Virus record (IMG/VR): IMGVR_UViG_3300045988_086557
Reading direction: 5' to 3' (one strand)
From: a virus
DNA: 64,000 nt
Under the pieces are notes generated by a model. That model was not told the origin of the DNA. It did no database searches and worked only from the letters and a program-made list of their open reading frames with translations. Of this stretch, positions 41,992 through 59,055 are shown piece by piece. The number at the start of each line of letters is the position of its first letter. Positions within the stretch are counted from its first letter, which is position 1. The translations under genes and the position numbers were made by a program.

Positions 41992-43737
41992 TTACACCTC
42001 ACTCATAAACATAAAATCTGAAAATCTTCTACTTTTACGCTTGCGTTTACTATCTTCTTCCTATTTAATATAATATAATCCATATTCAAGCGCAGAGAAT
42101 TTATCTTTGGGCACAGACTTATTTGCCTGTTTTAAAATAATATTTACACCCTCATTTTCTTCTCGCAAATTTAGCATTTCTTCTCTTAATATAGAAGTTA
42201 AAGTGAATGGTTTTAAATATTCTGCCCGCTCTTCTGGTTTCATGGCTTGACCTTTCTTGGTACCAAGTAATTTATTTCTAGCAACTTTTTCGTCGATTAA
42301 AAATCTTAACTTTCCAGCCCGCAACTATGTCTAAACATTGCTATGGGCTTCGGTATTAATTGGCGCATTTGCCTTAATTTCATAAATAGCATCATATTCT
42401 GTATTATCTGTTCTAAATCGTTTGTATTCTCCATCCTCATCATTAGCTACACCAAAATCAGGAAAAACTTCATTGGTATCTGGCACTATTTGTGGTTTAA
42501 CCATATAATCCATCAATCCAGCACCAAGTCCATTACCGTCAATAACAATAATTTTAGCTTTATAATCATAATATAATCTTTTTAGCTTAATTGCCTAATC
42601 TTCAAAATGTTCATCATCCATAGTATATATATTAACAAGAGACTTAATCGCTGGTCCTTGAGACTGAGGGGTTACTTTAAATACACATACAACAGATTGA
42701 CATTTCTTTCTTCCTACATCAACAGAAAGAACATAATATGCTTGAGCAGAAGAGCGCCCGGAAGATTCATATTCAGGCTAAAGCAATTTTCTACTTCTAT
42801 CAAAAGCATCACCATTAAAGAAGGCATCTTCTACGGTGCCACTCCATTTAGATTCATACTCTCTATCAAATGATGCTTCATTAAATGTACCATCTTGTTT
42901 TAACTCCTATACAAAGTTGCGGGATTGTAATCCCACTAGCACAGGAATTCTCCATGTTCCGCCCATTACAATACTCTTTTCGGGTTCTAGTATCATGCGC
43001 ACTAGCAAAGTAATCAACTTATTATATGGGAATGTGTTTTTCCACCCCGCAGTAGTAACATAAATCTAGGATTTATTGAGTGTTTCTTCTTCATGAACAG
43101 ATCCATCTAAACATCTTCTATCAACGTTCATTAGAGGGATTAAAACTTCATTTAAAATATCTCCATCTACACCAACGCACTCCTCAATTAATCCTCCATG
43201 TCTACGCTTACCACGAGAAGATTCTCTAGCAGCAACGTTGTCAAAATAAGATCCATTTTTGAAGATATACTTACAATAATCTTTTCCTTCCTAAGTCTTA
43301 CCTCTTCGCCAATCAATCTCTCTCTAAAGCGCGGGAATCGCATTACAAATTTCCTAGACTTTTTCTTTTGCTATACCTGCTGCCTGTTCTTTTCCACCAG
43401 AAGTAATGAATAGCTTACATCCAGGATATAATATACATCTACACATAAGCACCATTACTGATAAGAATGACTTAGAATAGGCACGGGGAAATACCATGTA
43501 TACATACTTATATCTCATGGCCGCCCGCAAGAAAACTCTCTAATAAAAATAAAAATTAATTTCTTTTTTTCTTGTCTCGTCTCCTCCGGTCTACAAAAAG
43601 TCAATAAACATATCTGGATATTCTCTCCAAAAAGCTATATACTATCTTGCTGCTGGAATTATCGCACGAACTCTTTCTTCGGAAAGACCAATTTTCTTAT
43701 TATTATTTGAAAGGTTTAATAAATCTTTTAATGCCAT
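41992..43737 (-). CDS. terminase large subunit (581 aa, about 12 in-frame TAG)
   Basis: N-terminal 'PDMFIDFL', Walker-A-like 'VFPRAYSKSF', nuclease domain 'IYVTTAGW', 'KIIVIDGNGLGAGL', 'LRFLIDEK'. Track ORFs 42331..42516 and 42061..42324 share the frame. Confidence 0.8.
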
Positions 43738-48539: not shown

Positions 48540-48961
48540 TTATTGCGAGACGAGACTTAAATATGTCTCCAGGGAAACTTGCCGCACAAGTTTCCCATGC
48601 TTCTATTGCTTTTCTTTTGGAAAAGTTATATTGGGGAAGTAAAGAAGTTGTTAAAGAAAGAGACGGTCTTATGTATCATATAGGAATAAGCCTCGATAGA
48701 GACTTATTCCATAATTGGATAGCGGAAGCGGAGACCAAAGTAGTTTGTAGAGCGAAGAATAAGAATGATTTGTTAAAGGCTGTTAAGATAGCAGAAGAAT
48801 TAGGATGGGAAGAGAATAAGGATTATTGGCTTATCTATGATGCTTGTAGAACAGAGTTAGAACGCGAAGGCCCGGAAGGGACTTTGACGTGTATTGGATT
48901 TAGGCCAATGGAGGCGGAAGAAATTGACAAAATTGGGAAGAAGTATCAGCTTTATAATTAA
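48524..48961 (+). CDS. peptidyl-tRNA hydrolase, PTH2 family (145 aa); overlaps upstream gene by 16 nt
   Basis: 'IIARRDLNMSPGKLAAQVSHASIAF', 'KVVCRAKN', 'YWLIYDACRTELEREGPEGTLTCIGFRP'. Confidence 0.7.
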   Translation: MFKQLIIARRDLNMSPGKLAAQVSHASIAFLLEKLYWGSKEVVKERDGLMYHIGISLDRDLFHNWIAEAETKVVCRAKNKNDLLKAVKIAEELGWEENKDYWLIYDACRTELEREGPEGTLTCIGFRPMEAEEIDKIGKKYQLYN

Positions 48962-49166
48962 TATAGTTTTGATTTTACTATTGTTGACTGCTTGCGTGGA
49001 GGAGAACAATCGTTATCCAAGGCTAGAGTATATTCCTACAATGTGGAGATCTGATGCGATTAATATTAAATTAGAAGATGGATATATCTTAAAAGGATAT
49101 GAAACGATAGAAACTGAGGATGGATATAATTTGATTTTTAGTTTTGAGGCAACCGACGATGGATAA
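48894..49166 (+). CDS. small predicted lipoprotein (start uncertain, possibly internal near 48960)
   Basis: signal/lipobox-like 'IVLILLLLTAC'. Confidence 0.3.
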   Translation: MDLGQWRRKKLTKLGRSISFIINIVLILLLLTACVEENNRYPRLEYIPTMWRSDAINIKLEDGYILKGYETIETEDGYNLIFSFEATDDG

Positions 49167-49287
49167 AGTATTAGTATGGTTTGACGGTAAGCATTATTAT
49201 AATATATGCGCAGTCTGTGGAGAATTATATCCAATTTACAAAGTAGAAGATCATATTATATATAATTTAAAGAAGAAGTGTAAATGC

Positions 49288-49320
49288 GGAGAGAAGAAGT
49301 GAGTTCTTCTCTCTTTTTCG
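49288..49320 (+). terminator. intrinsic terminator
   Basis: 'GAGAAGAAgtgagTTCTTCTC' + TCTTTTT. Confidence 0.5.
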
Positions 49321-49516
49321 TTATTGAGATTGAAAAGTTGATTTAGATTTTGAAATGGCGTGGCAGAACGATTTCACCAAAAAATTTCCAGTTTTTCCCA
49401 AAATACACGCCCCTCTTTCACATGGTAAAGTATTGAAGTGTAGTTGGCCTCTTTCGCTCGCTAAAGTACGAAAGCAAGAAAGCACGCCCCTAAAGGAATA
49501 CGCGCGCGTAAAGGGT

Positions 49517-49533
49517 TTGTGCAAACTGCACAA
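49517..49533. promoter_or_regulatory. perfect palindromic operator 'TTGTGCAaacTGCACAA' in an ORF-free GC-richer 220-bp region
   Basis: same TTGTGCAA half-site recurs in inverted pairs before 5 other early promoters. Confidence 0.5.
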
Positions 49534-49587
49534 CAAGATGTTATTTATTTTGTGCAAAAGAGAGAGAAAGAAATTTCAAAAAAACTA

Positions 49588-49712
49588 TTGACAAGTGAGC
49601 GTTTTGGTGGTAAACTGGACTTGTCCAGTAGGACAGAGACAAAAGCACAGCACTTTGAAAATTAAAAAATTTCAAAAAAGGTATTGACAAACTGCTAAAG
49701 GTTTGATACAAT
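49588..49712 (+). promoter_or_regulatory. two tandem consensus promoters (TTGACA-N17-TAAACT; TTGACA-N17-TACAAT)
   Basis: hexamers with TGn extended -10; the segment between them resembles the one in the 57.4-57.6 kb promoter array. Confidence 0.55.
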
Positions 49713-49765
49713 ACAGACAGAACAAAAGAGAATCACACCACAAAAAGAAAGGGAGTCAAAAGAGT

Positions 49766-50140
49766 ATGAAAAAGATTGATTTTACCAATGAAGATCGAGC
49801 CATTATTATGGAGTATATGGCGGCTAAGATGGCTAAGTCTGCGGCGGAGGCGGCGGAGAAAGCAGCTAAGGCTAAGGCTAAAGAGCTATTCTCCAGATTA
49901 GGTAAGGCTTTTAAGGCTACGGACAAAACAAGTTATCTATATGGCACGGTACAAATGCAGGGTAAGGCGAAAGCGGTGGTATATAAAGAAACTACCGCAA
50001 AAGGAACGGTTGACTGGAAAGCCTATGCTATGGCATTAGGTGGAACGGAAGCCGAAGCAGAGCAATTCCGCAGACCTTCCGATATTCGTACCTCTTTTGA
50101 TTGGGCGACAAAGACCCAAGAAGAAGAAATTAGAGGATAA
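49766..50140 (+). CDS. hypothetical Ala/Lys-rich protein (124 aa)
   Basis: AAAGGGAG RBS; ends TAA; followed by 14-bp perfect hairpin 50150..50185. Confidence 0.45.
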   Translation: MKKIDFTNEDRAIIMEYMAAKMAKSAAEAAEKAAKAKAKELFSRLGKAFKATDKTSYLYGTVQMQGKAKAVVYKETTAKGTVDWKAYAMALGGTEAEAEQFRRPSDIRTSFDWATKTQEEEIRG

Positions 50141-50407
50141 CAGTTTATAAACCCTGCCTTGCAAAACACAAGGCAAGGCAGGGTTATAATAATTAAAAGA
50201 AAGGGGTATACTATATGTATCAATTACAGGTTTTAGCCAATGAGAAAATGCGCTATTATGAACCATCCACCCTTTCAATGGCAAGATGGAAAGCCAGTCA
50301 CGAGATAGTCAATCCCAATCATTGGATTGTAGATTTATCCAGTGGAGAAATCGTAGATTAAAAAGAAGCTGACCTAACGGCTATACGGGGAGAAAGGATA
50401 AAAGACT

Positions 50408-50710
50408 ATGAACAATTATATTAAGTGGTTCGTTGGGCCTACTTTTAGAAAGCATGAATTTATTAAACTTTTGCGGTATAAGATGAATGTGCGTTCCGCA
50501 GAGGTAGAGGACGGCATCATCTTAGACCTGGATGCTTTTAATGCCATGCGAGTGGCCTATATGCCACACTGGGCTTATATCAATAGAAAGTTTATCAATA
50601 GCAATCTGCATACCAGAATTGCAAGCGAAGATGAATATAAGATTGCTATGGTTGGAGATACAATCGGTACTGAATGGGTTAAAGAACAGGAGGCAAAGAA
50701 ATGGAAATGA
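50408..50710 (+). CDS. hypothetical protein (100 aa)
   Basis: track ORF; ends TGA overlapping next ATG (ATGA). Confidence 0.45.
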   Translation: MNNYIKWFVGPTFRKHEFIKLLRYKMNVRSAEVEDGIILDLDAFNAMRVAYMPHWAYINRKFINSNLHTRIASEDEYKIAMVGDTIGTEWVKEQEAKKWK

Positions 50711-50853
50711 GAATTATTAAGCGGATAGGAGGCGGCATTTGTGCCGCTCTCCTACTCTGGACAGTTCTTAGTTGGGCTGATATAGTGGCGGATAACTGTG
50801 AGCCAAACCCACAGCACAGCGAATATAATATGTTCGTTCTCATGACTAAATAA
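50707..50853 (+). CDS. small membrane peptide (48 aa), translationally coupled
   Basis: 'GGGICAALLLWTVLSWA' hydrophobic core. Confidence 0.35.
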   Translation: MRIIKRIGGGICAALLLWTVLSWADIVADNCEPNPQHSEYNMFVLMTK

Positions 50854-50865
50854 TAGGAGGAAAAA

Positions 50866-51099
50866 ATGTATAGAGGGACTTATATCGACGCCATGGGCCG
50901 CAAGCGCAGAGAGATGGGATATTTCAGTCTTAATAAGCCCACTCTGAATAAACTCCATATACCAGTAATTGTCCAAGCGAGAGATAAGACAAGTGCGGCG
51001 AATAAAATCAATAGGAAATATAAATTGCGTATAAGTCCCAGCAATCTGCGGGAGGTGCCGATGGGCACGGGCTATCTCATGGAAACCATGGAGCTGTAA
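50866..51099 (+). CDS. hypothetical basic protein (77 aa)
   Basis: GGAGG RBS; track ORF. Confidence 0.4.
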   Translation: MYRGTYIDAMGRKRREMGYFSLNKPTLNKLHIPVIVQARDKTSAANKINRKYKLRISPSNLREVPMGTGYLMETMEL

Positions 51100-51112
51100 A
51101 GGAATAATACTT

Positions 51113-51216
51113 GACTGGCAATCTACACAAAGATTGCCAGTCATTTTTATGCACTTTTCCATATTGACTTTTCGCCGGGCCGCCAGCGTGCGCCGCGGCC
51201 CGAATTTTTATTTATT
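51113..51216 (+). terminator. cassette boundary module A: intrinsic terminator + GC-rich 'CGGGCCGc..gCGGCCCG' hairpin/T-tract
   Basis: 'GACTGGCAATC..GATTGCCAGTC'+ATTTTTAT; then 'CGCCGGGCCGCCAGCGTGCGCCGCGGCCCG'+AATTTTTATTT. Confidence 0.65.
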
Positions 51217-51246
51217 CGGCAATTTCAACAATTATATGACCGAAAG

Positions 51247-51313
51247 TTTGTGCAATTCGACGAAAGTTTTTCTCCCGAAATTACTTGACATTCCTTTTCC
51301 CATGTGTTATTAT
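51247..51313 (+). promoter_or_regulatory. module A operator half-site TTGTGCAAT + promoter TTGACA-N17-TATTAT (TGT extended)
   Basis: read directly. Confidence 0.6.
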
Positions 51314-51366
51314 ATACTTGTCCAAAGGGACAGGTCACAAAAAGAATTTGAAAGGAAGTAAAAAAA

Positions 51367-51606
51367 ATGACTTTAGATATGGTTGCTTGGTTACTTTCTC
51401 CGCTTGCAGAAGATACTATGTTCTTTGACGGGGAGGGATTCGAAATTATCAATAAGAATACCCAAGCTCATTACCATGAATTACCTGATGGTAGAATAAC
51501 TCTGGGAGGAGACGTAATCGAGGTATCTAAGGAATGGGTTCTGGGACTTCAGGTAACCGGCATTGAGGCAAGAGATAACAATTTAATCATTTATGTAGAT
51601 GGTTAA
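51367..51606 (+). CDS. hypothetical protein (79 aa)
   Basis: GAAAGGAAG RBS; track ORF. Confidence 0.45.
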   Translation: MTLDMVAWLLSPLAEDTMFFDGEGFEIINKNTQAHYHELPDGRITLGGDVIEVSKEWVLGLQVTGIEARDNNLIIYVDG

Positions 51607-51668
51607 GAAAACTTGCGGGAGTGGAGGCCACAAACCTCTACTCCCCACGATAAAAAGGAGGAATAAAT

Positions 51669-51884
51669 ATGATTGCTGTTATTAAATTTGAAAGTGCAGA
51701 AAAGTCTGTGGAGTTTGGAAACACAATTTGTAATATGGCTGGCTGGTGTTTGGGTCATCCTCTCAATTCCAATGTTACCGGCTGTGTTTGTACACTTGAT
51801 TTTAATACCGGCGACAAGCAAGATAGAGCCTTATATAATTATCTGCTAAAAATTGGAGCTTTCGAGGAGGTGGAACTAAAGTGA
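51669..51884 (+). CDS. hypothetical Cys-containing protein (71 aa)
   Basis: AAAGGAGG RBS; track ORF. Confidence 0.45.
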   Translation: MIAVIKFESAEKSVEFGNTICNMAGWCLGHPLNSNVTGCVCTLDFNTGDKQDRALYNYLLKIGAFEEVELK

Positions 51885-52085
51885 GTATTGAGCGTTTACC
51901 GCATACATATCCTATCGGTTCCACTGTTTGGACAAATAAGGGATATGGCACAGTTCTACTTCACATTGGTAAATACCATCTGGTTTGGCTACAGAGATTA
52001 GGGCTGGCGTAATGCCGGCCCTATTGATTTTTTCAAAAAAATATATTATAATAATTATAGAAAAATAAAGAAAGGAGTTTTTCTA

Positions 52086-52202
52086 ATGACCTTAGAAGTG
52101 CTGAAAGCACTCGCGGTTATTTTGGAGTTCTGTTTGAACTAGGATTCTTGCAAGAATTGTCCTATGTCTCAGTTCTGCCAGAAAATGCCTTGCGAGTGGT
52201 AA
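52086..52202 (+). CDS. small Cys-rich peptide (about 38 aa) with one in-frame TAG
   Basis: 'MTLEVLKALAVILEFCLN.DSCKNCPMSQFCQKMPCEW'. Confidence 0.3.
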
Positions 52203-52294
52203 ATGTTCCTTCCGATTGTTCTAAATCGGCGATTCCCGTGATGGAGTCGTTTTTCGCACGAGCCTAGGTCACTAGAATTTATTTATCAAAATGC

Positions 52295-52525
52295 AAGAAA
52301 CTACTTTCTCTCGCAAATTGGATTCAAGTGGTAGAATTATGATTCCGATTCGTTTGCGTGAACAAATGGGACTTACTTCCGGTTAGGAATACTATTTCAC
52401 TACTATGGTAAAAGATGGCAGAAAATACATCTGCATTGACTGCGGATCGGTTGATTCCTCACTTGAAGAAGCTATGAAAATTATCCAAGCAAACGGATTA
52501 AAGATTGTTGAAAATGCCGATTGAC
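52295..52525 (+). CDS. AbrB-family (swapped-hairpin) transition-state-regulator-like protein, about 76 aa, with one in-frame TAG at codon 32
   Basis: 'RKLDSSGRIMIPIRLREQMGLTSG[TAG]EYYF' aligns with AbrB 'RKVDELGRVVIPIELRRTLGIAEKDALEIYV'; start codon/RBS weak. Confidence 0.5.
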
Positions 52526-52564
52526 TTCTCAAAAGAAAGGGAGTTGTTGGTATGCAGAAATTAA

Positions 52565-52643
52565 TGACCTCCTGAAATTCAGGAGGTTCTTTTTTTATTC
52601 GTTCGCCCGGCCGTGCACCACAGGCGCGGCCGGAATTTTTTAT
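52565..52643 (+). terminator. cassette boundary module B: intrinsic terminator + GC-rich hairpin/T-tract
   Basis: 'ACCTCCTGaaatTCAGGAGGT'+TCTTTTTTT; 'GCCCGGCCGTGCACCACAGGCGCGGCCGG'+AATTTTTT. Confidence 0.65.
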
Positions 52644-52650
52644 CAAGAGG

Positions 52651-52743
52651 CAATTTGCACAATTTTAGGCTCGAATTGTTGTGCAATCTGATGGAAGATT
52701 TTTTCCCAAAATCGCTTGACTTTCTATCTGTTATCTGTTATAC
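52651..52743 (+). promoter_or_regulatory. module B inverted-repeat operator TTGCACAA-N16-TTGTGCAA + promoter TTGACT-N17-TATACT
   Basis: read directly. Confidence 0.6.
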
Positions 52744-52797
52744 TTGTATCATCAAGAGGGGAGAACAAAAGCCCTCGAAACAAAAGGAGAATGAGTT

Positions 52798-53031
52798 ATG
52801 TATCTGGTAATGGCTGACAGTAGAGAAAAGATTATCGGCGTTTCTGATACTGAAACTGGCGCACGCCATGCGGGATGGGACTGGCTCAAGGCCCAGTATT
52901 CCGAAAGCGAGTGGAGCCAAATTCTGGAAGATATGGACTATGAGAATGAAGGGGACTTGCGGCATGACCTTCTCATGGGCGCATATTGGGAAGATTTCGA
53001 TATGGAGATTATCGAGGTTAAGAGGGTATAA
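52798..53031 (+). CDS. hypothetical acidic protein (77 aa)
   Basis: AAAGGAGAATG RBS; track ORF. Confidence 0.45.
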   Translation: MYLVMADSREKIIGVSDTETGARHAGWDWLKAQYSESEWSQILEDMDYENEGDLRHDLLMGAYWEDFDMEIIEVKRV

Positions 53032-53060
53032 ACCCTCTTAACCAGAAAAGGAGTATATAT

Positions 53061-53213
53061 ATGACTACCTTCACAATGATTGTTTTGATTGCGTTTGTGG
53101 CCTGCCTTGCATGGCAGTTAATGGCGGCTGCTCAAAAGAGCTGTATTCGGCTTGAAATCATGTTTGCCGCAGAAATTCTAATGTTCGCATATTTGGCAAA
53201 AAATTTGATGTAA
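53061..53213 (+). CDS. small membrane protein (50 aa)
   Basis: AAAAGGAG RBS; single TM 'MIVLIAFVACLAWQLMAAA'. Confidence 0.4.
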   Translation: MTTFTMIVLIAFVACLAWQLMAAAQKSCIRLEIMFAAEILMFAYLAKNLM

Positions 53214-53217
53214 AGGG

Positions 53218-53246
53218 TTGACAAACCGCTTAAACAGTGGTATAAT
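53218..53246 (+). promoter_or_regulatory. consensus promoter TTGACA-N17-TATAAT (TGg extended)
   Basis: read directly. Confidence 0.6.
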
Positions 53247-53297
53247 CAATAATGTAAAGAGAAGGAAAACTCATTAAACCAGAAAGGAAATATTGCT

Positions 53298-53528
53298 ATG
53301 TATAGAATGACTGAGCAGGATAGACAGGGGATTATTCTTCTGCATAAGACCATGGAGGAGTTCTGCCCAGGAGAAGCAGCACAGGCAATGCTCCAGTCTT
53401 TGGGAAAATTCCTGCGGATCGGCATGTGTACTCCCGATGACGCGGCCGATATTATCAAGGGTATTTTCGATGAGGAAGCCGATAAGACAGTTGATGAAAT
53501 GACTATGATGGATTTACTTTCCTTGTAA
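53298..53528 (+). CDS. hypothetical protein (76 aa)
   Basis: GAAAGGAAA RBS; track ORF. Confidence 0.45.
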   Translation: MYRMTEQDRQGIILLHKTMEEFCPGEAAQAMLQSLGKFLRIGMCTPDDAADIIKGIFDEEADKTVDEMTMMDLLSL

Positions 53529-53536
53529 AAAAGGGG

Positions 53537-53565
53537 TTGACAAACTGCCCCTTCTGTGGTACAAT
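53537..53565 (+). promoter_or_regulatory. consensus promoter TTGACA-N17-TACAAT
   Basis: read directly. Confidence 0.55.
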
Positions 53566-53623
53566 AAGACTATGGAAGGGGCAGCCCCAAAAATAAATTA
53601 AAATAAGAAAGGGAGTTTTAGAA

Positions 53624-54022
53624 ATGCGTGTTACTAAGAGGATTGAAGCCTATATCAATGATGAGGTCAACAAGATTGCGAACGCCAAGCGAGAGGAAAT
53701 CAGAGCCAAGTATGCGGACGCTATGAAAGAGTTTGAGGATTTCATCGAGGAAGGCCGAAAAGAGATTGAGGCGCTGAATACAAGGATTATTGAGCGCGCC
53801 ACAGCGAAGGGATATAAGCTCCGCCGCTATTATGACCAGGAGTGTGCCAAGTCAAATATGTGCAGTCTTTACAACCCCATCAACCAAACGATGGATGAAG
53901 AGCTGTCCACTGTGACAAAGTGGGTAGAGGAAAATGCAAGTCTGATCTGCGTCAAGCTGGAAATGGGCGGCGACATGAAAACTCTGTCTACTCTGCTGGA
54001 CGAACTGCGGAAATCGCTTTAA
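53624..54022 (+). CDS. hypothetical coiled-coil protein (132 aa)
   Basis: AAGGGAG RBS; followed by 8-bp GC hairpin 54031..54067. Confidence 0.45.
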   Translation: MRVTKRIEAYINDEVNKIANAKREEIRAKYADAMKEFEDFIEEGRKEIEALNTRIIERATAKGYKLRRYYDQECAKSNMCSLYNPINQTMDEELSTVTKWVEENASLICVKLEMGGDMKTLSTLLDELRKSL

Positions 54023-54076
54023 GGAAAGGAGGCGCGGGAGTATAGGACTTGTATTCTATGCTCCCGCGATAAAAAA

Positions 54077-54535
54077 ATGAGAGCTGTTGGTATTGTTCGA
54101 CATATTGATGACCTAGGGCGTATTGTTATTCCTAGAGAAATTCGTAGGAGTATGCGAATTAGAGAAGGCGACCCTATGGAAATTTTTCTTGATGGCGACT
54201 GTATAGCCTTCAAGAAATATTCTCCACTATCTTTTTTCGTTGACCATGCCCACGAAATGCGAAATGCCCTTTCTGTTAATCACATTTCCGCGGCGATCTT
54301 CGATTCAGATAAACTTTTAAGCGGGCCTAGTTCTTTCAAAATTTCTATACCACCAGATGAATGGAGTAATATCAGCCAACCTGCGACAGCGTGGAAATCT
54401 ATGTTTATTACTCCCATTTTTTCTGATGGGGGACAAATTGGATTCATTTGTTACAAAAATCTGCACAATGATGAATCTATTCACGAAATGGTTAAATTAG
54501 TCGCAAGGTATTTTTCAAATATGGCTGAAAGATAA
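54077..54535 (+). CDS. SpoVT-like regulator: AbrB-type N-terminal DNA-binding domain + truncated GAF-like C-terminal domain (152 aa)
   Basis: 'GIVRHIDDLGRIVIPREIRRSMRIREGDPMEIFLDGDCIAFKKYSP' is near-identical in pattern to B. subtilis SpoVT 'GIVRRIDDLGRVVIPKEIRRTLRIREGDPLEIFVDRDGEVILKKYSP'. Confidence 0.75.
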   Translation: MRAVGIVRHIDDLGRIVIPREIRRSMRIREGDPMEIFLDGDCIAFKKYSPLSFFVDHAHEMRNALSVNHISAAIFDSDKLLSGPSSFKISIPPDEWSNISQPATAWKSMFITPIFSDGGQIGFICYKNLHNDESIHEMVKLVARYFSNMAER

Positions 54536-54619
54536 AAGAAGGGCTTCGGCCCTTCTTTTTTATACACTAAAAATTCGACGGCGCGCTGACGCACGCGGCG
54601 CGCCGAGTTTTCTTATTTG
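54535..54619 (+). terminator. cassette boundary module C: intrinsic terminator + GC-rich hairpin/T-tract
   Basis: 'GAAGGGCttcgGCCCTTC'+TTTTTTAT; 'CGACGGCGCGCTGACGCACGCGGCGCGCCG'+AGTTTTCTTATTT. Confidence 0.65.
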
Positions 54620-54648
54620 TAAGTTCTACACAATTTTTGTCTTGAAAT

Positions 54649-54695
54649 CTTGTGCAATTCGCCATCTTGCAATTATCCTTAAATTATGGTATTAT
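54649..54695 (+). promoter_or_regulatory. module C operator TTGTGCAAT(tcgccatc)TTGCAAT + promoter TTGCAA-N17-TATTAT (TGg extended)
   Basis: read directly. Confidence 0.55.
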
Positions 54696-54722
54696 TAGTA
54701 CAGAAAAAAGGAGGGGTACTAA

Positions 54723-54971
54723 ATGAAACCTTCAAAGTTTATTCAGCCCAATGAATACTTAACCGTGGCTGAAATTTATCGTAGACAATTCGGGCATACT
54801 ACTACCCCGGTTAATTATGAGGTTTATATACGAACTGTGCTTTTACAAGACCCTCTGATCTATATAGATTGTATGTCAATGCCTTATAAGGTATATCGGC
54901 GTAAAACTTTTTTTGAAAAACTTGTTGACAAGGTGTGCAATAAATGGTATAATAAAACAAAAGGAGATTGA
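54723..54971 (+). CDS. hypothetical protein (82 aa); its 3' end contains the promoter of the next gene
   Basis: AAGGAGGGG RBS; internal TTGACA-N17-TATAAT at 54925..54953. Confidence 0.4.
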   Translation: MKPSKFIQPNEYLTVAEIYRRQFGHTTTPVNYEVYIRTVLLQDPLIYIDCMSMPYKVYRRKTFFEKLVDKVCNKWYNKTKGD

Positions 54972-54977
54972 TATACA

Positions 54978-55439
54978 ATGACTAAAAAAATGCTCTGCTT
55001 TGACATGGATGGAACTATCGCGGACTTGTATGCAGTCCCTAATTGGCTCGAAAAACTCCGCAATGGAGACCCTACCCCATTCCGAGACGCGGCCCCTATG
55101 TGGGACATGGAAGCCCTCCGAAATGCGCTTCTAAAGGCAATCAATAACGGATGGGAAATTAGAGTAATTACATGGCTACCACCTGAAAGCACTCCCGAAT
55201 ATAAGAAAGCAGTCACAGCCGCAAAAAAGGAATGGCTTGCAAGGTATAAATTTCCGGCCCATAAATGTCATTGTGTGGCATACGGAACGACCAAAGCCAA
55301 ATGTGTATTCCGTAGTTTCTATGAACCGCCGTTTATCCTTTTTGATGATAATGATAAAATTAGGTACGGTTGGCATTTAGGAGATACAATAAATCCAGGA
55401 GAGACAGACATAATCGAATATATCAACAATTTGGACTGA
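54978..55439 (+). CDS. HAD-superfamily 5'(3')-deoxyribonucleotidase-like protein (153 aa)
   Basis: motif I 'LCFDMDGTIADL', downstream 'FILFDDNDK'; overall NT5C-like layout. Confidence 0.55.
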   Translation: MTKKMLCFDMDGTIADLYAVPNWLEKLRNGDPTPFRDAAPMWDMEALRNALLKAINNGWEIRVITWLPPESTPEYKKAVTAAKKEWLARYKFPAHKCHCVAYGTTKAKCVFRSFYEPPFILFDDNDKIRYGWHLGDTINPGETDIIEYINNLD

Positions 55440-55441
55440 AT

Positions 55442-55466
55442 GGGGCGGGGTGAAAATCCCCGCCCC
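55442..55466. repeat. hairpin 'GGGGCGGGGtgaaaatCCCCGCCCC', copy 1 of 2 (second at 58085..58107)
   Basis: identical 23-nt core at both sites, each immediately after a gene stop. Confidence 0.5.
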
Positions 55467-55488
55467 ACAAAGAAAGGGAGTTTTGTCA

Positions 55489-55683
55489 ATGCAAATTAAG
55501 AAAGTTAATAGGCTCATTTTTGATTCAACGGAAAAACAAACATTGAGAAATGCTTCAATTCTCATAAGCCAGATTAGCCGGAGCATGGAAGAGAATGAAA
55601 TTGATGATGATTTTCCTGTCTCTCTTGATGATCTGGTATATGGGATAGATGAACTAATCAATAGGGAATATATTGGATATTAA
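55489..55683 (+). CDS. hypothetical acidic protein (64 aa)
   Basis: AAAGGGAG RBS. Confidence 0.4.
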   Translation: MQIKKVNRLIFDSTEKQTLRNASILISQISRSMEENEIDDDFPVSLDDLVYGIDELINREYIGY

Positions 55684-55688
55684 AAATA

Positions 55689-55773
55689 CCCCTCTCATTA
55701 TTGAGAGGGGTATTTTTTTATTGTCGTTTGGGCGGCCCGCGCTTGGGCGGTGCGGGCCGAATTTTTTTCTTTG
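55689..55773 (+). terminator. cassette boundary module D: intrinsic terminator + GC-rich hairpin/T-tract
   Basis: 'CCCCTCTCattattGAGAGGGG'+TATTTTTTTA; 'GGCGGCCCGCGCTTGGGCGGTGCGGGCCG'+AATTTTTTTCTTT. Confidence 0.65.
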
Positions 55774-55778
55774 TAGAT

Positions 55779-55849
55779 GTTGCACAATTTTGGCGGCGAA
55801 AAGTTGTGCAATTTGCCATCTTGCAATTCTCCCAAAAGTATGGTATTAT
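55779..55849 (+). promoter_or_regulatory. module D inverted-repeat operator TTGCACAA-N19-TTGTGCAA + promoter TTGCAA-N17-TATTAT
   Basis: read directly. Confidence 0.6.
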
Positions 55850-55980
55850 TATCATGTCAGGAGGGAGAGGCCAAGAAATCAAGAGGTCGCGAACTCTTAG
55901 AAAGTAAAGGAAGCAAAGTATACGGCTAAATTTCAATTAGCTACTGAAAGGATTAAGCCAAAAAAACTTTCCTTTTCCTC
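55850..55980 (+). ncRNA. candidate small non-coding transcript (about 130 nt) between the module D promoter and a second promoter
   Basis: consensus promoter upstream, no ORF longer than 17 codons, no RBS; second promoter TTGACA-N17-TATAAT at 55981..56009 serves the exonuclease gene. Confidence 0.25.
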
Positions 55981-56043
55981 TTGACACCAAGCCTTAAATG
56001 TGCTATAATAATACCATCAAGAGAAGAAAGGACTTGATAGATT

Positions 56044-56868
56044 ATGATTGATAAGCGCAGACATTATGTGCTGGTGGTTGACACTGAAACCGCCAACACA
56101 CTAACCGAAACCGTTCCCGCTGAAATCGGAGAGGATGGGGAGATTATTACTCCTGAGCGTGTCCGCATGGATATGTCAAATGTACTGGTATATGACTGCG
56201 GTTGGGCTGTAGTAGATACCAAGGGCAATATTTACGAAACTGCAAGTTTTGTAAATCGGGACATTTTCAATGACGAGCGAGACTTAATGCGGACGGCCTA
56301 TTATAATTGGAAAATCCCCCGCTATGTTGAGGAATTGCGGGCCGGCACTCGCAAGATGGCTACTACTTATGAAATCCGTCAGGCTATGCTTGATACTATC
56401 GAGCGATACGGAATTAAGGAAGTGGCTGCTTATAATGCCCGGTTTGACGATAACGCTCTGCGGGTCACTCAACGATGGGTCACTTGCTCTAAGTTTCGCT
56501 ACTGGTTCCCGTTTGACAGTGTGGAAATTTGGGATATTATGAAGATGACACAAGATGTTATCTGCAATATGCCCACTTATAAGAAATTCTGTCAGGAAAA
56601 TGGATATATCCAAGCCAATGGCGTTCCCCGTAAGACTGCGGAAATCGTGTGGCGGTTTATCTCTGGAAATACCGATTTTGAGGAAAGTCATACGGGGCTT
56701 GAAGATGTTCTCATTGAGGCGGAAATCATGTGGTACTGTATGCGCCAACATAAGCCCATGAGAAAGGCCCTGTATGAGAATAGGAAGGAATTTCCTCCTA
56801 TGACAGACTTTCAGCGTCAGCTTTCCGCAAGTATGCGGAATGTACCTACTATTCGAGTCGGGGCTTAA
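56044..56868 (+). CDS. DnaQ-like DEDDh 3'-5' exonuclease (274 aa)
   Basis: Exo I 'VVDTETA', Exo II 'AAYNARFDDNAL', Exo III 'SHTGLEDVLIEAEI'. Confidence 0.65.
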   Translation: MIDKRRHYVLVVDTETANTLTETVPAEIGEDGEIITPERVRMDMSNVLVYDCGWAVVDTKGNIYETASFVNRDIFNDERDLMRTAYYNWKIPRYVEELRAGTRKMATTYEIRQAMLDTIERYGIKEVAAYNARFDDNALRVTQRWVTCSKFRYWFPFDSVEIWDIMKMTQDVICNMPTYKKFCQENGYIQANGVPRKTAEIVWRFISGNTDFEESHTGLEDVLIEAEIMWYCMRQHKPMRKALYENRKEFPPMTDFQRQLSASMRNVPTIRVGA

Positions 56869-56911
56869 CGCCCCGCTCCATAAAAAATATCTGAAAAGTA
56901 TGTAAAAAACC

Positions 56912-56940
56912 TTGACAGCTTCACCGAATTGTGGTATAAT
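56912..56940 (+). promoter_or_regulatory. consensus promoter TTGACA-N17-TATAAT (TGg extended)
   Basis: read directly. Confidence 0.6.
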
Positions 56941-56987
56941 TTAATCATCAAGAGGGAATAACCCTCATAAAAGAAAGGGAGTTTTGT

Positions 56988-57138
56988 TATGATGAATTTC
57001 TATTTTAAGACTGCGGCAGGCCATGTGTTTGCGGGTGTCGGCAAGGATGTTGACCGTGCCCGTTCTGATGCTAAGCGCAAGGCCGGTTCTCTTTGGTCGC
57101 CTTCGGCCAAGTGCTTCAAAATCGGGAACGCTATTTAA
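56988..57138 (+). CDS. small basic protein (50 aa)
   Basis: AAAGGGAG RBS. Confidence 0.4.
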
Positions 57139-57153
57139 GACGTTTCCGACTAA

Positions 57154-57232
57154 AAGAGGGGTTTTACCCCTCTTTTTTTTATACAAAATTGAGCGGGTCG
57201 CGCAGGAGCGGCGCGACCCGAGTTTTTCTTTG
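57154..57232 (+). terminator. cassette boundary module E: intrinsic terminator + GC-rich hairpin/T-tract
   Basis: 'AGAGGGGttttaCCCCTCT'+TTTTTTTTA; 'CGGGTCGCGCAGGAGCGGCGCGACCCG'+AGTTTTTCTTT. Confidence 0.65.
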
Positions 57233-57236
57233 TAAA

Positions 57237-57624
57237 TGTTGCACAAAAATTTCAACCCCGTTTTGTGTAAAATTCTGCACAAAAACTTTCTCCCAAAATT
57301 CCGATTTTTGTGCAATTTGACGCTTGCAATCTGCTTTTGCTTGTGGTAAAATACATTCAGAAAGTGAGAGAGACGAACGGCAGACAGCGACAGCGAATTT
57401 CTCAAAAATCTTTCAAGAATCTCTTGACAAGCCTTTGAAGATGTGCTATAATAAGTACAGAAAACAAGGCAATGCACCTTGAAAATTAAATAAAAAGGGC
57501 TTGACAAACTTTCCAAAGTGTGTTACACTATAAGGGAGGTTGAGAGGGCAAACAAGTAAAGAGCAAAAGTTCTTGAAAAAAGTTTGAAAAACCTCTTGAC
57601 AAGTACCAAATAGTGTGGTACAAT
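57237..57624 (+). promoter_or_regulatory. module E: operator pairs (TTGCACAA...TTGTGTAA, TCTGCACAA...TTGTGCAAT) followed by four tandem consensus promoters (-35 at 57324, 57425, 57501, 57596)
   Basis: four TTG(A/C)CA-N17-TAnAnT hexamer pairs, each with TGn extended -10, within 300 bp upstream of the gene at 57673. Confidence 0.6.
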
Positions 57625-57672
57625 ATAATCAAAGGACAAGGACAGTCCTAAAAACCAGAAAGGATGTATATT

Positions 57673-58074
57673 ATGGACGAGAAGAAAATCCGCATTACTA
57701 AGGCCCAGCGTTTTGAGGACATTAAGGCCCTCTTGACTGACGGCGAGGTAAAGTATGGCACTACCATCGAGGTGGCTATTACTGTCATTGACCATGAGCT
57801 GGAGCTTCTGCGTAAGAAGAATAGCTCTAGCGGTGACAAGAAGCTGACTCCCACCCAGCAGGAGAACGAGAATTTTAAGGAGCAGATTATGGAGTATCTG
57901 GCTGGTCTGGATGCCGATACCGATGGCGTAACCTGCACGGAAATTTTCAAGGCTATTCCTGATCTGACGGCCTATTCTAACCAGAAGGTCGCCGCCCTTG
58001 TGCGGCAGTTGAAACTCGATGGTCGAGTGGTCTGCACGGAGAAGAAGGGCAAGTCCCTCTTTAAGATGGCGTAA
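57673..58074 (+). CDS. putative winged-helix DNA-binding regulator (133 aa)
   Basis: C-terminal 'GVTCTEIFKAIPDLTAYSNQKVAALVRQLKLDGRVVCTEKKGKSLF' wHTH-like; AAAGGA RBS; heavily promoted. Confidence 0.4.
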   Translation: MDEKKIRITKAQRFEDIKALLTDGEVKYGTTIEVAITVIDHELELLRKKNSSSGDKKLTPTQQENENFKEQIMEYLAGLDADTDGVTCTEIFKAIPDLTAYSNQKVAALVRQLKLDGRVVCTEKKGKSLFKMA

Positions 58075-58212
58075 CCCCGTATAGGGCGGGGTGAAAATCC
58101 CCGCCCTAACTTATAATATGGGGGTGATATTATATCCAGTCGCATTAGTGACGCTGAACGGATTGCAAGGTATAAAGCCCTACAATTAACGCCGGAACAG
58201 GAGGCGGAGTTA

Positions 58213-58530
58213 TTGGCCTATGATAAAGCGGTAGAGGCTGATAAAAAGACTGAATACGATTTACCGCCAGATAAGGCAAAAATTGCCCAAAAGTTTGCCC
58301 ATGCGGGGACGAGAAAGGCTCCAACGGCATATAAGTTTACGCCCCGGCAACGCAAGCCAAACGCCACGAAAGGCGGTATAATCGCGGAATTGGCAGAGTT
58401 TTTGGAAAAAAACAGTCAATTCTCTATCGCTGACTTGTCTATTACTAACAAAGAAAGGCAGATTGCGTTTTCTATTGGTGGGGATAGTTTCGAGTTGACG
58501 CTTGTGCAAAAGCGTAAGCCGAAGAAATAA
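58213..58530 (+). CDS. hypothetical basic protein (about 105 aa; TTG start in track)
   Basis: track ORF; followed by GC hairpin 'GGGGTAGGgtcggCCTACCCC'. Confidence 0.35.
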   Translation: MAYDKAVEADKKTEYDLPPDKAKIAQKFAHAGTRKAPTAYKFTPRQRKPNATKGGIIAELAEFLEKNSQFSIADLSITNKERQIAFSIGGDSFELTLVQKRKPKK

Positions 58531-58586
58531 CGGGGTAGGGTCGGCCTACCCCGGCCCTACCAGAAAAGAGGCAAGTTATAGTTAGT

Positions 58587-58937
58587 TTGCAGACAAGGAG
58601 AAAAGAGTTCCTATATGTCGGACATTATATCGACAAAAAGGGGCGCTATATTCTCAAGATTGGTACGACAAATGACCTTGAACGCAGAGCCGCAGAGCAT
58701 ACGAGAAATTATAAGCGGGCGCCAGATTACACCATGCCGGAAGATGGTTCCTTTATCTATGATTGGCATATCAAACTTTCCAAGTATAATACCCTACGAT
58801 ACGAGGATGTAAACCGGACTTTGTGGCAGAATATGGGAATTGGTCGTTTTATCAGAAATGACCGTTTCTTGTGCGACACTCCCCCGGCCATGGTTACGGT
58901 GGTTATTCGCAAGGCATATCCAATAATTCTCAACTAA
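58587..58937 (+). CDS. GIY-YIG / T5orf172-like nuclease-domain protein (116 aa)
   Basis: 'FLYVGHYIDKKGRYILKIGTTNDLERRAAEH' matches the GIY...YIG..T.N...RR..EH pattern; preferred over overlapping 65-aa ORF 58615..58812. Confidence 0.5.
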   Translation: MQTRRKEFLYVGHYIDKKGRYILKIGTTNDLERRAAEHTRNYKRAPDYTMPEDGSFIYDWHIKLSKYNTLRYEDVNRTLWQNMGIGRFIRNDRFLCDTPPAMVTVVIRKAYPIILN

Positions 58938-58942
58938 AGAAA

Positions 58943-59023: not shown

Positions 59024-59055
59024 TATTGTCATTTTCAACAATTTTGAATTGAAAA

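Follow-up and report, generated by a model that had tools for sequence, protein, structure and literature searches.

A SpoVT-like protein with a reduced GAF domain in an optional early cassette of a TAG-recoded phage of Bacillota

This locus raises the question of whether a phage that encodes a homologue of the sporulation regulator SpoVT, and a second, smaller AbrB-fold protein nearby, uses them to alter the sporulation or transition-state programme of its host. The window, by which we mean the whole 64,000-nucleotide stretch of DNA analyzed here, is of phage origin, as first described, with genes for a terminase, a capsid and a 2908-aa tail protein and with a DGR. It is best explained as coming from a siphovirus of Bacillota with a genome of ~148 kb, in whose late genes TAG is read as Gln. 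The features of the locus are collected in Table 1.

Table 1. Features of the SpoVT-like locus, in window coordinates
Feature	Coordinates	Strand	Details
Weaker sigma-A-like promoter	52024..52052	+	TTGATT-17-TATAAT, 10/12 matches; upstream of the TAG-containing operon
Conserved Cys-rich ORF	52086..52202	+	38 codons; in-frame TAG at codon 19 (52140-52142)
Small AbrB-fold gene (AbrB-like)	52291..52524	+	77 codons; in-frame TAG at codon 32 (52384-52386)
Two terminator-like hairpins after the AbrB-like gene	52566..52633	+	start of the first flanking cassette
Accessory block	52660..54630		~1.97 kb, five genes including the SpoVT-like gene; missing from an otherwise 99.9%-identical phage
Predicted sigma-A-type promoter	53537..53565	+	TTGACA-17-TACAAT, extended -10 TG; 11/12 consensus matches
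Upstream co-oriented gene	53624..54022	+	132 aa; sub-threshold DUF1351 match only
Shine-Dalgarno (SD)	54023-54032	+	GGAAAGGAGG
15-bp hairpin	54033-54068	+	between SD and gene; ends 8 nt before the start codon
SpoVT-like gene	54077..54535	+	152 aa, ATG to TAA, no in-frame TAG
SpoVT-like protein domains	residues 1-50; ~51-152		AbrB-type DNA-binding; reduced GAF-like
G5 run in C-domain coding sequence	54428..54432	+	G4, giving a -1 frameshift, in nearly identical phages of four samples
Pair of hairpins resembling intrinsic terminators, 3' of the SpoVT-like gene	54538..54605	+	one at 54579-54605

The SpoVT-like ORF is real, and its translation includes the peptide quoted in the preliminary description. 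The top match in a phmmer search of PDB sequences is B. subtilis SpoVT (2w1t, E=1.5e-21), with an alignment that spans residues 1-82 and a weak colinear segment (residues 108-147). The N-domain is 70% identical to that of B. subtilis SpoVT (35/50 residues), and identity reaches ~82% inside the quoted stretch (manual count on the phmmer alignment); the claim of an almost residue-for-residue copy overstated the match. All four DNA-contact arginines (Arg8, Arg15, Arg23 and Arg24) are retained, and across phage and cellular SpoVT sequences R8, R15 and R23 are invariant and R24 nearly so. By phmmer the N-domain scores 71-80 bits against SpoVT versus ~49 bits against AbrB/Abh (E ~5e-12). The C-domain shows 19% identity to B. 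subtilis SpoVT, and the alignment to cellular SpoVT is colinear except for a gap of ~20-25 residues in the GAF core.

Curated profiles detect the DNA-binding domain (PF04014, named MazE_antitoxin, 33.6 bits for a cutoff of 24.7; TIGR01439, 39.5 bits for a cutoff of 28.3), while Pfam GAF_2 matches weakly (E=0.05). The best NCBIfam match, TIGR02851 (94.2 bits), is confined to model positions 1-83 of 180. Assignment as a SpoVT equivalog was ruled out, as the curated cutoff of this model is 235.9 bits and the Pfam profile PF15714 (SpoVT_C) matches neither this protein nor any short-family member. The setting of cellular SpoVT, chromosomal in an endospore former and expressed in the sigma-G forespore, was likewise ruled out by the phage early region and the sigma-A-type promoter. 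The AF2 model of the 152-aa protein (pLDDT 89.5, pTM 0.80) has 2w1t_A as its top Foldseek match (E=1.6e-10, TM 0.65), with GAF domains (fRMsr, CodY, KdpD) and the SpoVT C-domain 2w1r (TM 0.58 on target) next in rank; the best BFVD match is a 137-aa viral protein, A0A8S5PY96. Among solved structures searched with Foldseek, SpoVT alone fits the AbrB-plus-GAF two-domain plan. The proposed shortened GAF-like C-terminal domain thus holds at the level of the fold but not of the profiles. At the Pfam level alone the protein reads as a generic MazE-type domain lacking SpoVT_C, the outcome that had been named in advance as counting against a SpoVT homologue, whereas the fold search says the opposite and places it with SpoVT and GAF. 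Taken together, derivation of the protein from SpoVT, with reduction of its GAF domain, is supported.

The SpoVT-like family is diverse (139-162 aa) and covers dozens of 50%-identity clusters that are conserved full-length, with at least 70 of the best 150 50%-identity representatives being full-length short forms. All ten genomic contexts examined for the family look phage-like, and no relatives of the C-domain were found in 185,579 species genomes. Phage N-domains are 80% similar to cellular SpoVT N-domains and 77% similar to one another, whereas the C-domains share only 17-29%. In the collection, 512 blocks contain the identical 152-aa protein, and its 90%-identity cluster has 70 members. 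The phage that carries the gene is very common in the gut.

The second AbrB-fold ORF had been placed at 52295..52525, which is out of frame and riddled with stops; an AbrB fold is nonetheless supported, if more weakly, in the frame given in Table 1. The 77-aa product matches PHROG 4681 (E=7.6e-8) and falls below cutoff with curated profiles (Pfam MraZ, 22.4 vs 23 bits; MazE, 21.5 vs 24.7; TIGR01439, 18 vs 28.3), and hhalign aligns it to the SpoVT-family N-domain with 85% probability (E=6e-6). Its structural model (pLDDT 65) is beta-beta-alpha-beta-beta, with an AbrB N-domain as the top Foldseek match (E=0.048). The protein also contains an invariant CIDCG motif as well as a C-terminal helix, and its family (41 clusters) is found in this phage lineage only. 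The AbrB-like gene is intact only if TAG is read as Gln, and the in-frame TAG went unmentioned in the preliminary description. Of 14 copies examined from the lineage, 13 have exactly one TAG, at codon 32 or codon 25, defining two allele classes; in L008, L024, L025 and L027 codon 32 encodes Gln and Gln25 is replaced by TAG. The adjacent Cys-rich ORF behaves similarly in L008 (TAG at codon 29, Gln at codon 19) and is TAG-free in L005. The pattern in these two ORFs looks as though selection favors the presence of a TAG, not its site. The promoter of this operon belongs to an AT-rich repeat class common to positions 46037, 60718, 63363 and 63958 (families D7, D10 and D11).

The phage decodes TAG as Gln (genetic code 15), which had been missed. 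Reading TAG through raises the summed length of ORFs of at least 100 aa from 7,465 aa under code 11 (longest 463) to 22,588 aa (longest 2,908), and the 50 gene calls end in TAA (40) or TGA (10), never in TAG. In-frame TAGs number 288 in 26 late genes versus two in 24 early genes, both of the latter in the AbrB-like operon. Of the 13 TAGs in the gene for the terminase large subunit, four coincide with a Gln that does not vary among Enterococcus H1, Geobacillus E3 and Alicyclobacillus KKP_3916; the others occupy variable, mostly polar (E/K/N/T) positions, with Leu or Phe in the homologues at about three. Reciprocal TAG/Gln swaps also occur among homologues of both small genes. No suppressor tRNA with anticodon CTA was found in the ~74 kb examined of the ~148-kb genome; the window is tRNA-free, and an array of seven tRNAs, none with a CTA anticodon, begins ~8.8 kb past its end.

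Upstream of the SpoVT-like gene, the predicted promoter would drive a two-gene unit that ends with this gene, and it belongs to a near-identical family of early-region promoters (families D4 and D5). A consensus promoter and the lack of TAG codons (compared with 288 in the late genes) point to early expression. The first gene of the unit is not a fixed partner, since the gene at the equivalent position in L005 is non-homologous; the L008 homologue is 48% identical. The hairpin between the SD and the start codon has a predicted dG of -30.5 kcal/mol (z = -4.2), and L008 has an equal SD-hairpin-AUG arrangement with a different stem sequence. Downstream, the first of the two terminator-like hairpins (~54538-54562) reads GAAGGGC-TTCG-GCCCTTC plus a T-run. 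Terminators of this kind open a repeated intergenic cassette composed of a terminator, a TTGCACAATTTT-N12-TTGTGCAA inverted repeat and a promoter, and cassettes lie directly 3' of both the SpoVT-like and the AbrB-like genes. The TTGTGCAA element occurs 13 times in the window versus 2.0 expected, 12 of the 13 copies lying within 49.5-59.1 kb just upstream of -35 elements. It is present in the lineage relatives L001-L005 and L008 and absent from L006, L007 and L009-L012, which are unrelated phages with members of the SpoVT-like family.

The accessory block is flanked by two copies of this cassette. In the deletion variant L028, window positions 50411-52687 are joined to 54627-58349, with the junction within a shared CACAATTTT motif, and the AbrB-like gene is kept. 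Four further loci (L001-L004), 99.3-99.8% identical to the window, carry the frameshift in the G run (products P0002 and P0006); P0021 is a deletion-fusion product and P0005 an example of an N-terminally truncated gene call. Because natural variants with the 1.97-kb deletion or the frameshift exist, the SpoVT-like gene is dispensable, an optional gene of an early cassette. This optional status had been overlooked.

The host can be placed in Bacillota only. Relatives of the structural genes occur in Phass-1 (predicted Clostridia) and in phages of Enterococcus, Geobacillus, Alicyclobacillus, Lactococcus and Staphylococcus, hence in phages of sporulating and non-sporulating Bacillota alike, and AbrB-domain genes are found in Listeria phages. 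The two genes therefore do not suffice to pin the host to endospore formers, as had been proposed, and a sporulating host deduced from the SpoVT-like gene itself is a circular argument.

We tentatively favor, at a little under an even chance, the reading that the SpoVT-like protein mimics host SpoVT/AbrB-type regulators or competes with them, independently of any signal. Host sigma-A RNA polymerase would transcribe the gene early from its consensus promoter, and because the gene is TAG-free its mRNA could be translated in the standard code from the start of infection. SpoVT binds DNA as a tetramer, its GAF domain may bind a still-unidentified substrate, and there is no consensus site for the cellular protein (PMC5061766). 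With the AbrB head and the two long GAF helices kept, the phage protein would be expected to dimerize, tetramerize and bind DNA in the manner of SpoVT, while loss of the ~20-25 residues round the GAF pocket could remove the need for the SpoVT ligand. The mimic would then occupy the DNA sites of host regulators or form mixed oligomers with them, AbrB and Abh being capable of homomeric and/or heteromeric binding (PMC3025583), and thereby shift the sporulation or transition-state programme of the infected cell in favor of the phage. The AbrB-like gene would be a separate, retained phage regulator, with a full-length product only after the TAG-to-Gln switch. Gene identity, fold, genetic code, the layout of promoters and terminators, and dispensability are shown by the analysis above, and oligomerization, DNA targets, ligand independence and an effect on sporulation are what we infer here; ligand independence is a guess based on a structure prediction, and manipulation of host sporulation is plausible. 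We count as signs of a host-directed function the conservation of N-domains from phage to cellular proteins next to diverged C-domains, the invariance of R8, R15 and R23 with near-invariance of R24, and the absence of TTGTGCAA from unrelated carriers of the family. The high N-domain conservation could, however, partly reflect constraint from the swapped-hairpin fold, and the frequent loss of the gene means that any benefit can at best be conditional. Cellular SpoVT works late and in the forespore, under control of sigma-G. A copy driven early by sigma-A during lytic infection would encounter little host SpoVT, which counts against the preferred mechanism, and the effect may for this reason be AbrB-like rather than SpoVT-like.

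The same observations bear on other readings. The SpoVT-derived protein could be the phage's own temporal regulator, binding the intergenic cassettes to tune or shut off early promoters, with no host target. The excess and clustering of TTGTGCAA near -35 elements and the cassettes directly after both AbrB-fold genes fit such a role, and AbrB-fold proteins are common phage regulators, being so annotated in Paenibacillus, Bacillus and Brevibacillus phages. We nevertheless regard it as somewhat unlikely, as the motif is confined to the lineage and missing from unrelated carriers of the gene, the 99.9%-identical phage keeps all cassettes without the gene, frameshift alleles recur in four samples, and cassette binding is more readily ascribed to the AbrB-like gene, which the deletion variant still has. 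The clean loss in L028 and the frameshifts in L001-L004 are easier to understand for an accessory gene for interaction with the host than for a core regulator of the phage. Variants of this kind, together with the deletion fusion and the truncated calls, would also be expected of a decaying passenger (moron) that does little or nothing at present and rides along between recombinogenic cassettes. This is hard to reconcile with an intact, identical protein in hundreds of collection blocks, with the size of its 90% cluster, with dozens of clusters conserved full-length, with strong N-domain conservation, or with a structured ribosome-binding site whose compensatory changes indicate maintained expression, and we hold it to be improbable.

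General host takeover is a further reading, in which an AbrB-type global repressor would act on, for example, stationary-phase, competence, biofilm or toxin genes with no particular link to sporulation, and in which the host may be a non-sporulating member of the Bacillota. Early sigma-A-driven expression is predicted outside the usual sigma-G context of SpoVT, the N-domain also matches AbrB/Abh, the closest cultured structural relatives include phages of Enterococcus, Lactococcus and Staphylococcus, and AbrB-domain genes are known from phages of Listeria. We judge it unlikely, since the N-domain scores are of SpoVT type, the AbrB-plus-GAF plan is that of SpoVT among solved structures, and cellular SpoVT is not known outside endospore formers. 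That the protein is a MazE-type antitoxin from a toxin-antitoxin or anti-defence module is very improbable. The basis for this would be the name of the Pfam domain and the matches of both proteins to PHROG 4681 'antitoxin', that of the SpoVT-like protein (E=2e-20) covering the shared AbrB domain only. Against it, no toxin family was found in any neighboring gene with Pfam, PHROGs or PADLOC, PADLOC was negative for both proteins, terminators follow both genes and a separate promoter follows the SpoVT-like gene, and the C-domain is GAF-like rather than a toxin-binding tail. Finally, a timer coupled to the genetic-code change could be built from the two AbrB-fold genes, a reading prompted by the presence of only two early TAGs, both in one operon, and by the single TAG of shifting position. 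The TAG-free SpoVT mimic would be active from the first minutes, and the AbrB-fold protein and the Cys-rich peptide would be completed once TAG is read as Gln; the small protein might then replace or antagonize AbrB-type DNA binding, for instance through mixed swapped-hairpin dimers or at the intergenic inverted repeats, tying the early-to-late switch to the code switch. We give this timer little credence.

The concept of a phage SpoVT is not new. The 90%-identity cluster of the window protein includes NCBI DAN98126.1, 'MAG TPA: stage V sporulation protein T [Caudoviricetes sp.]', BFVD A0A8S5PY96 is a comparable viral protein named 'Stage V sporulation protein T [Siphoviridae sp. ct2vX3]', and phage spoVT/abrB homologues were reported in 2023. 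In passages of that report, Schwartz et al. describe gut phages with spoVT and abrB homologues, given as rows of a KEGG-orthologue table, and with truncated spo0A homologues from which the receiver domain is missing (PMC10294663), and passages there and in an earlier preprint already infer an effect on sporulation (bioRxiv 10.1101/2021.07.15.452460). The added value here is one of detail, namely architecture, timing, dispensability and genetic code; the passages of Schwartz et al. on spoVT and abrB do not include the short-GAF architecture, genetic code, expression timing or dispensability. If the preferred reading of interference with host SpoVT/AbrB-type control is correct, a phage found in hundreds of metagenome samples would be changing how gut Bacillota form spores or the quality of those spores, which matters for how commensals and pathogens that sporulate are transmitted and persist. 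As a SpoVT 'sensor-trimmed' by nature, the short-GAF form could help to explain the SpoVT GAF domain, and the intact, frameshifted and cleanly deleted variants (98-99.9% identity over the compared regions) are ready-made controls.

Among known systems, B. subtilis SpoVT (2W1T, full length; 2W1R, C-domain; 2RO5, N-domain) has the same plan of an AbrB-type swapped hairpin followed by a GAF-like domain. The phage protein is shorter (152 versus 178 aa), with ~20-25 residues fewer round the GAF pocket, and its gene stands behind a sigma-A-type promoter, whereas SpoVT is chromosomal and sigma-G-dependent. This trimming of the sensor domain is paralleled by the receiver-less phage Spo0A of Schwartz et al. 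2023 (PMC10294663). AbrB and Abh have the DNA-binding fold in common with the 152-aa protein, but AbrB carries a C-terminal multimerization domain in place of a GAF-like one. Isolated phages of spore formers (Bacillus, Paenibacillus, Brevibacillus and Clostridium) encode single-domain AbrB genes, and the 77-aa protein belongs to this looser AbrB group, set apart by its CIDCG motif and C-terminal helix. MazE/PemI antitoxins (PF04014, PHROG 4681) share the swapped-hairpin domain and differ in the adjacent toxin and in the C-terminal region. The TAG-recoded gut phages Phass-1 (OQ749652, PMC10607447) and the clades of Borges et al. (bioRxiv 10.1101/2021.08.26.457843) likewise read TAG as Gln late and keep early genes compatible with the standard code. 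Phass-1 resembles the phage described here in its large genome, its tape-measure-like gene (~2900-3150 aa) and its major capsid protein (52% identical), and differs in having no SpoVT-like match. Unlike these phages, the present lineage has a single TAG-containing operon amid TAG-free early genes.

The plus-strand ORF at 54077..54535 encodes a 152-aa protein (ATG start, TAA stop) that, among PDB sequences, is matched best by SpoVT of B. subtilis (2w1t, E=1.5e-21), with residues 1-82 aligned and a weak colinear stretch near the C-terminus. The SpoVT equivalog TIGR02851 ranks first in NCBIfam, scoring 94.2 bits against a cutoff of 235.9 and covered over its first 83 model positions only, while in the Pfam search the AbrB/MazE domain PF04014 is above cutoff, GAF_2 is sub-threshold and SpoVT_C is not found. 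The sequence searches lead to SpoVT without reaching the level of family membership. The predicted structure supports a SpoVT-like fold. The AF2 model (input of 36 sequences) is confident (pLDDT 89.5, pTM 0.80) and places a β-β-α-β-β head before two long helices, the second of them C-terminal, with a small sheet between them. Foldseek returns full-length SpoVT (2w1t_A) first (E=1.6e-10, TM 0.65), followed by the GAF domains of fRMsr, CodY and KdpD together with the SpoVT C-domain (2w1r).

Colinearity with cellular SpoVTs is interrupted once, midway through the GAF domain: ~20-25 residues are missing there, and a family-specific FP-x3-P-x2-W motif occupies the point. Across the phage SpoVT-like and cellular SpoVT sequences Arg8, Arg15 and Arg23 are invariant and Arg24 is nearly so. 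Relative to B. subtilis SpoVT the N-domain is 70% identical and the C-domain 19%. Gene identity, fold and alignment therefore bear out the preliminary description of a SpoVT-type head with a shortened GAF-like domain, an identity held with high confidence. The peptide that it quoted is present in the translation, and its "almost residue-for-residue" reflects a genuine N-domain match in overstated wording.

A word-indexed search divides the relatives into two groups, ordinary cellular SpoVTs (176-185 aa, with PF15714) and short forms of 145-156 aa that have no SpoVT_C match. When a profile of the short group was run against 1.84 billion representatives, 335 matches were obtained at E<=1e-30; full-length short forms (139-162 aa) make up at least 70 of the top 150. 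Every readable context of the short gene is phage-like. These contexts comprise the window's own lineage (metagenome loci L001-L004 and L020-L029), two syntenic relatives (L005 and L008), an unrelated ~115-kb phage with reverse transcriptase, ThiF, DNA ligase and tRNAs (L006, L007 and L011), and several short contigs of small ORFs that all run in one direction. In the assembly collection 512 blocks index the exact 152-aa protein, the contigs reaching ~150 kb. Clustered at 90% identity, it groups with NCBI DAN98126.1, "MAG TPA: stage V sporulation protein T [Caudoviricetes sp.]"; its top viral fold match, a 137-aa protein of a human-gut siphovirus, is likewise named stage V sporulation protein T. 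Among deposited phages, megablast of the early region matched nothing and no protein match covers 80% of the 152 residues: some human faecal contigs reach 67%, and cultured phages of Paenibacillus, Bacillus, Brevibacillus, C. perfringens and Listeria match in the AbrB domain only.

The nearest deposited relative of the phage is the TAG-recoded Phage Phass-1 (capsid 52% identical), followed by large siphoviruses of Enterococcus, Geobacillus, Alicyclobacillus, Lactococcus, Brevibacillus, Bacillus and Staphylococcus. The C-domain, scanned against 185,579 species (one genome each), has no relative there; a single weak Saprospiraceae match is probably unrelated. The phage FolD gene was rejected as a guide to the host: its top matches all belong to the same phage lineage (contigs <= ~150 kb), and it therefore carries no host signal. 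The preliminary description placed the host among endospore-forming Firmicutes; this assignment is supported only to the level of Bacillota.

Several independent lines agree that TAG is a sense codon, read as Gln, throughout the window. ORFs of at least 100 aa sum to 7,465 aa under the standard code (longest 463 aa) and to 22,588 aa with TAG read through (longest 2,908 aa), and TAG terminates none of 50 gene calls. The 26 late minus-strand genes (7.6-46 kb) contain 288 in-frame TAGs against 300 CAA plus CAG codons. Of the 13 TAGs in the terminase large subunit, 4 coincide in alignment with a Gln that does not vary among three standard-code homologues (from Enterococcus phage H1, Geobacillus virus E3 and Alicyclobacillus phage KKP_3916). 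The 24 early plus-strand genes (47.1-60 kb) contain only 2 TAGs, both in the operon 52086..52524. GC content is 33% in the late module (~7640-45987, minus strand) and 40% in the early module (~47100-60000, plus strand). In recoded gut phages, likewise, late genes are recoded while early genes keep the standard code (bioRxiv 10.1101/2021.08.26.457843; PMC10607447). The longest ORF probably encodes the tape-measure protein; it can be compared with the ~3,150-aa genes reported for Phass-1 (PMC10607447). Gene calling with the standard code fragments most of the structural module. Scans of the window, of related loci and of the 10 kb past the window end detected no suppressor tRNA. An array of seven tRNAs (Ile-TAT, Leu-CAA, Asn, Leu-TAG, Leu-GAG, Asp, Ala) lies ~8.8-10.4 kb past that end (L028 and L029 18802-20406); it extends beyond the examined sequence, and the part covered holds no CTA suppressor.

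Both early TAGs fall in small genes, one in each. Of the two genes in the preliminary description, the SpoVT-like ORF is confirmed and the second, AbrB-fold gene is confirmed in part; the interval given for the latter, 52295..52525, is wrong and its translation full of stops. This second gene is represented in 41 clusters, almost all of which come from metagenome assemblies, and 14 copies were read in the window's lineage. Its predicted secondary structure has the order of an AbrB head followed by a C-terminal helix, with an invariant CIDCG motif between the two; profile-profile comparison relates it to the SpoVT-family N-domain (85% probability), and Foldseek, run on a low-confidence model, ranks the AbrB N-domain first. 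Codon 32 is TAG in 9 of the 14 copies; in four others (L008, L024, L025, L027) it is Gln and the TAG stands at codon 25, so that 13 of the 14 have exactly one TAG. The more distant L005 has none, either here or in the neighbouring Cys-rich ORF, whose TAG is codon 19 in the window and codon 29 in L008. This pattern may reflect selection for gating of the operon by the code switch. NCBI TPA record DAN98407.1, called with the standard code, cuts the AbrB-like gene at its TAG, leaving a 39-aa fragment named "metallo-beta-lactamase"; this name is an annotation artefact of the recoding.

The SpoVT-like gene has no TAG and is therefore translatable ahead of any change of genetic code. A predicted promoter at 53537-53565 (TTGACA-17-TACAAT with TG) is close to consensus and is followed by a 132-aa gene, the SpoVT-like gene and terminator hairpins. 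The 132-aa gene was rejected as a fixed partner, since it is not conserved beside the SpoVT-like gene in L005. Between its stop codon and the SpoVT-like start codon lies GGAAAGGAGG, directly followed by a perfect 15-bp hairpin (dG -30.5 kcal/mol, z -4.2) and then 8 nt to the AUG. The Shine-Dalgarno (region 54023-54076) is thus set apart from the start codon by the hairpin, which when folded leaves an effective spacing of 8 nt. The syntenic locus L008 (~70% DNA identity here; ~9950-10000) differs in stem sequence but shares the layout; the hairpin is therefore conserved by compensatory change. T4 genes 38 and 25 have similar ribosome-binding sites, likewise bridged by a hairpin. An Rfam scan of 46-64 kb gave no match. 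In other phage lineages the SpoVT-like gene has an ordinary Shine-Dalgarno, and often its own consensus promoter, directly upstream. Five perfect promoters with an extended -10 TG lie on the plus strand within 4.3 kb; as predicted from sequence, the set is unusually dense, of host-type consensus, and drives very small early genes.

The SpoVT-like gene is dispensable. In L028 (ERZ1309171 NODE_136, 113.9 kb), window positions 50411-52687 (98.4% identity) are joined directly to 54627-58349 (99.9%), and the missing ~1.97 kb holds five genes, the SpoVT-like gene among them, while the AbrB-like gene is kept. The junction lies inside a CACAATTTT motif common to two copies of a repeated intergenic cassette. 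A deletion-fusion product (P0021) also occurs. In four further samples G4 replaces G5 at 54428-54432, a frameshift that replaces the last ~35 residues. The cassette (~125 nt) consists of a GC-rich terminator hairpin, the inverted repeat TTGCACAATTTT-N12-TTGTGCAAT and a sigma-A-like promoter, and TTGTGCAA occurs 13 times in the window against 2 expected. The cassette is a demonstrated site of recombination through which gene blocks are gained or lost, and a candidate operator.

Elsewhere in the window the serine recombinase and all genes of the diversity-generating retroelement, which also has a small accessory ORF, contain in-frame TAGs. The FolD-like, PARG-like and PTH2 genes are accompanied in L008 by an additional SIR2 gene, and a peptidyl-tRNA hydrolase within a stop-codon-recoding phage may merit attention. 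At 62005-62341 at least 8 repeats of ~30 nt (TTCATAGTATTnTCAGAATACCATGAAA) probably constitute an iteron-type replication origin; adjoining them are divergent small genes (62334-63072, minus strand) whose relatives match DUF6290/RHH (RepB-RCR_reg, NikA-like) and DUF6291/HTH_7.

Coordinates of annotated features in the window
Feature	Coordinates	Strand	Remarks
Serine recombinase	138-809	-	Resolvase, E=1e-30
Diversity-generating retroelement	2471-6497	+	
Retroelement target protein	2471-4264	+	Big_3 + DUF6273 domains
Retroelement reverse transcriptase	5280-6497	+	RVT_1
Probable tape-measure gene	20873-29599	-	2,908 codons, 101 in-frame TAGs
Terminase large subunit	41992..43737		13 TAGs
FolD-like methylene-THF dehydrogenase/cyclohydrolase	46406-47193		early gene, 4 TAGs
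Microbial PARG-like macrodomain protein	47772-48539		early gene
PTH2 peptidyl-tRNA hydrolase	48524-48961		early gene
Cys-rich ORF	52086..52202	+	38 codons, in-frame TAG at 52140-52142
AbrB-like gene	52291..52524	+	77 codons, in-frame TAG at 52384-52386
Cassette copies	51165-51320, 52596-52750, 54570-54700, 55722-55855, 57185-57360, 58975-59110		
Perfect promoters	53218-53246, 54925-54953, 55981-56009, 56912-56940, 57424-57452	+	TTGACA-17-TATAAT, 12/12 consensus

What the SpoVT-like protein does can be weighed against these data. PHROGs labels it "antitoxin", a label derived from the N-domain only; a toxin-antitoxin or defence role for it and the AbrB-like protein was rejected, there being no toxin neighbour and no PADLOC match. 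A link between the protein and the TTGTGCAA inverted-repeat cassettes was likewise rejected on co-occurrence, the motif being lineage-specific and absent from other phages that carry the family. We favour, tentatively and at somewhat less than an even chance, a host-directed mimic or competitor of SpoVT/AbrB-type regulators, because the phage N-domains stay near the cellular SpoVT consensus (80%, against 77% to one another) while the C-domains drift (17-29%), because the intergenic motif of the lineage is not carried along with the gene into other phages, and because the gene comes and goes as accessory genes do. The 152-aa protein would form AbrB-type dimers and tetramers and bind DNA as SpoVT does. 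Against the favoured reading, cellular SpoVT acts late, in the forespore, and the early sigma-A-driven phage copy may therefore act more like AbrB.

The interpretation in the preliminary description is supported in part, control of host sporulation being a plausible candidate effect, and was already anticipated in print. In Schwartz et al. (2023), regulators enriched in phages of spore formers include spoVT and abrB, and phage spo0A without its receiver is discussed (PMC10294663); Bernard et al. report many AbrB matches in gut phages. What is new is modest: a short-GAF phage subfamily that fails the SpoVT family thresholds, a TAG-free SpoVT-like gene versus a TAG-gated AbrB-like gene inside a recoded phage, presence or absence of the former bounded by cassettes, and its hairpin-bridged ribosome-binding site. 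SpoVT itself is a tetramer with a possible ligand (PMC5061766), and the trimmed GAF domain may free the phage protein from the need for that ligand. For interference through hetero-oligomers of the kind that a competitor might form, the mixed oligomers of AbrB and Abh provide the precedent (PMC3025583).
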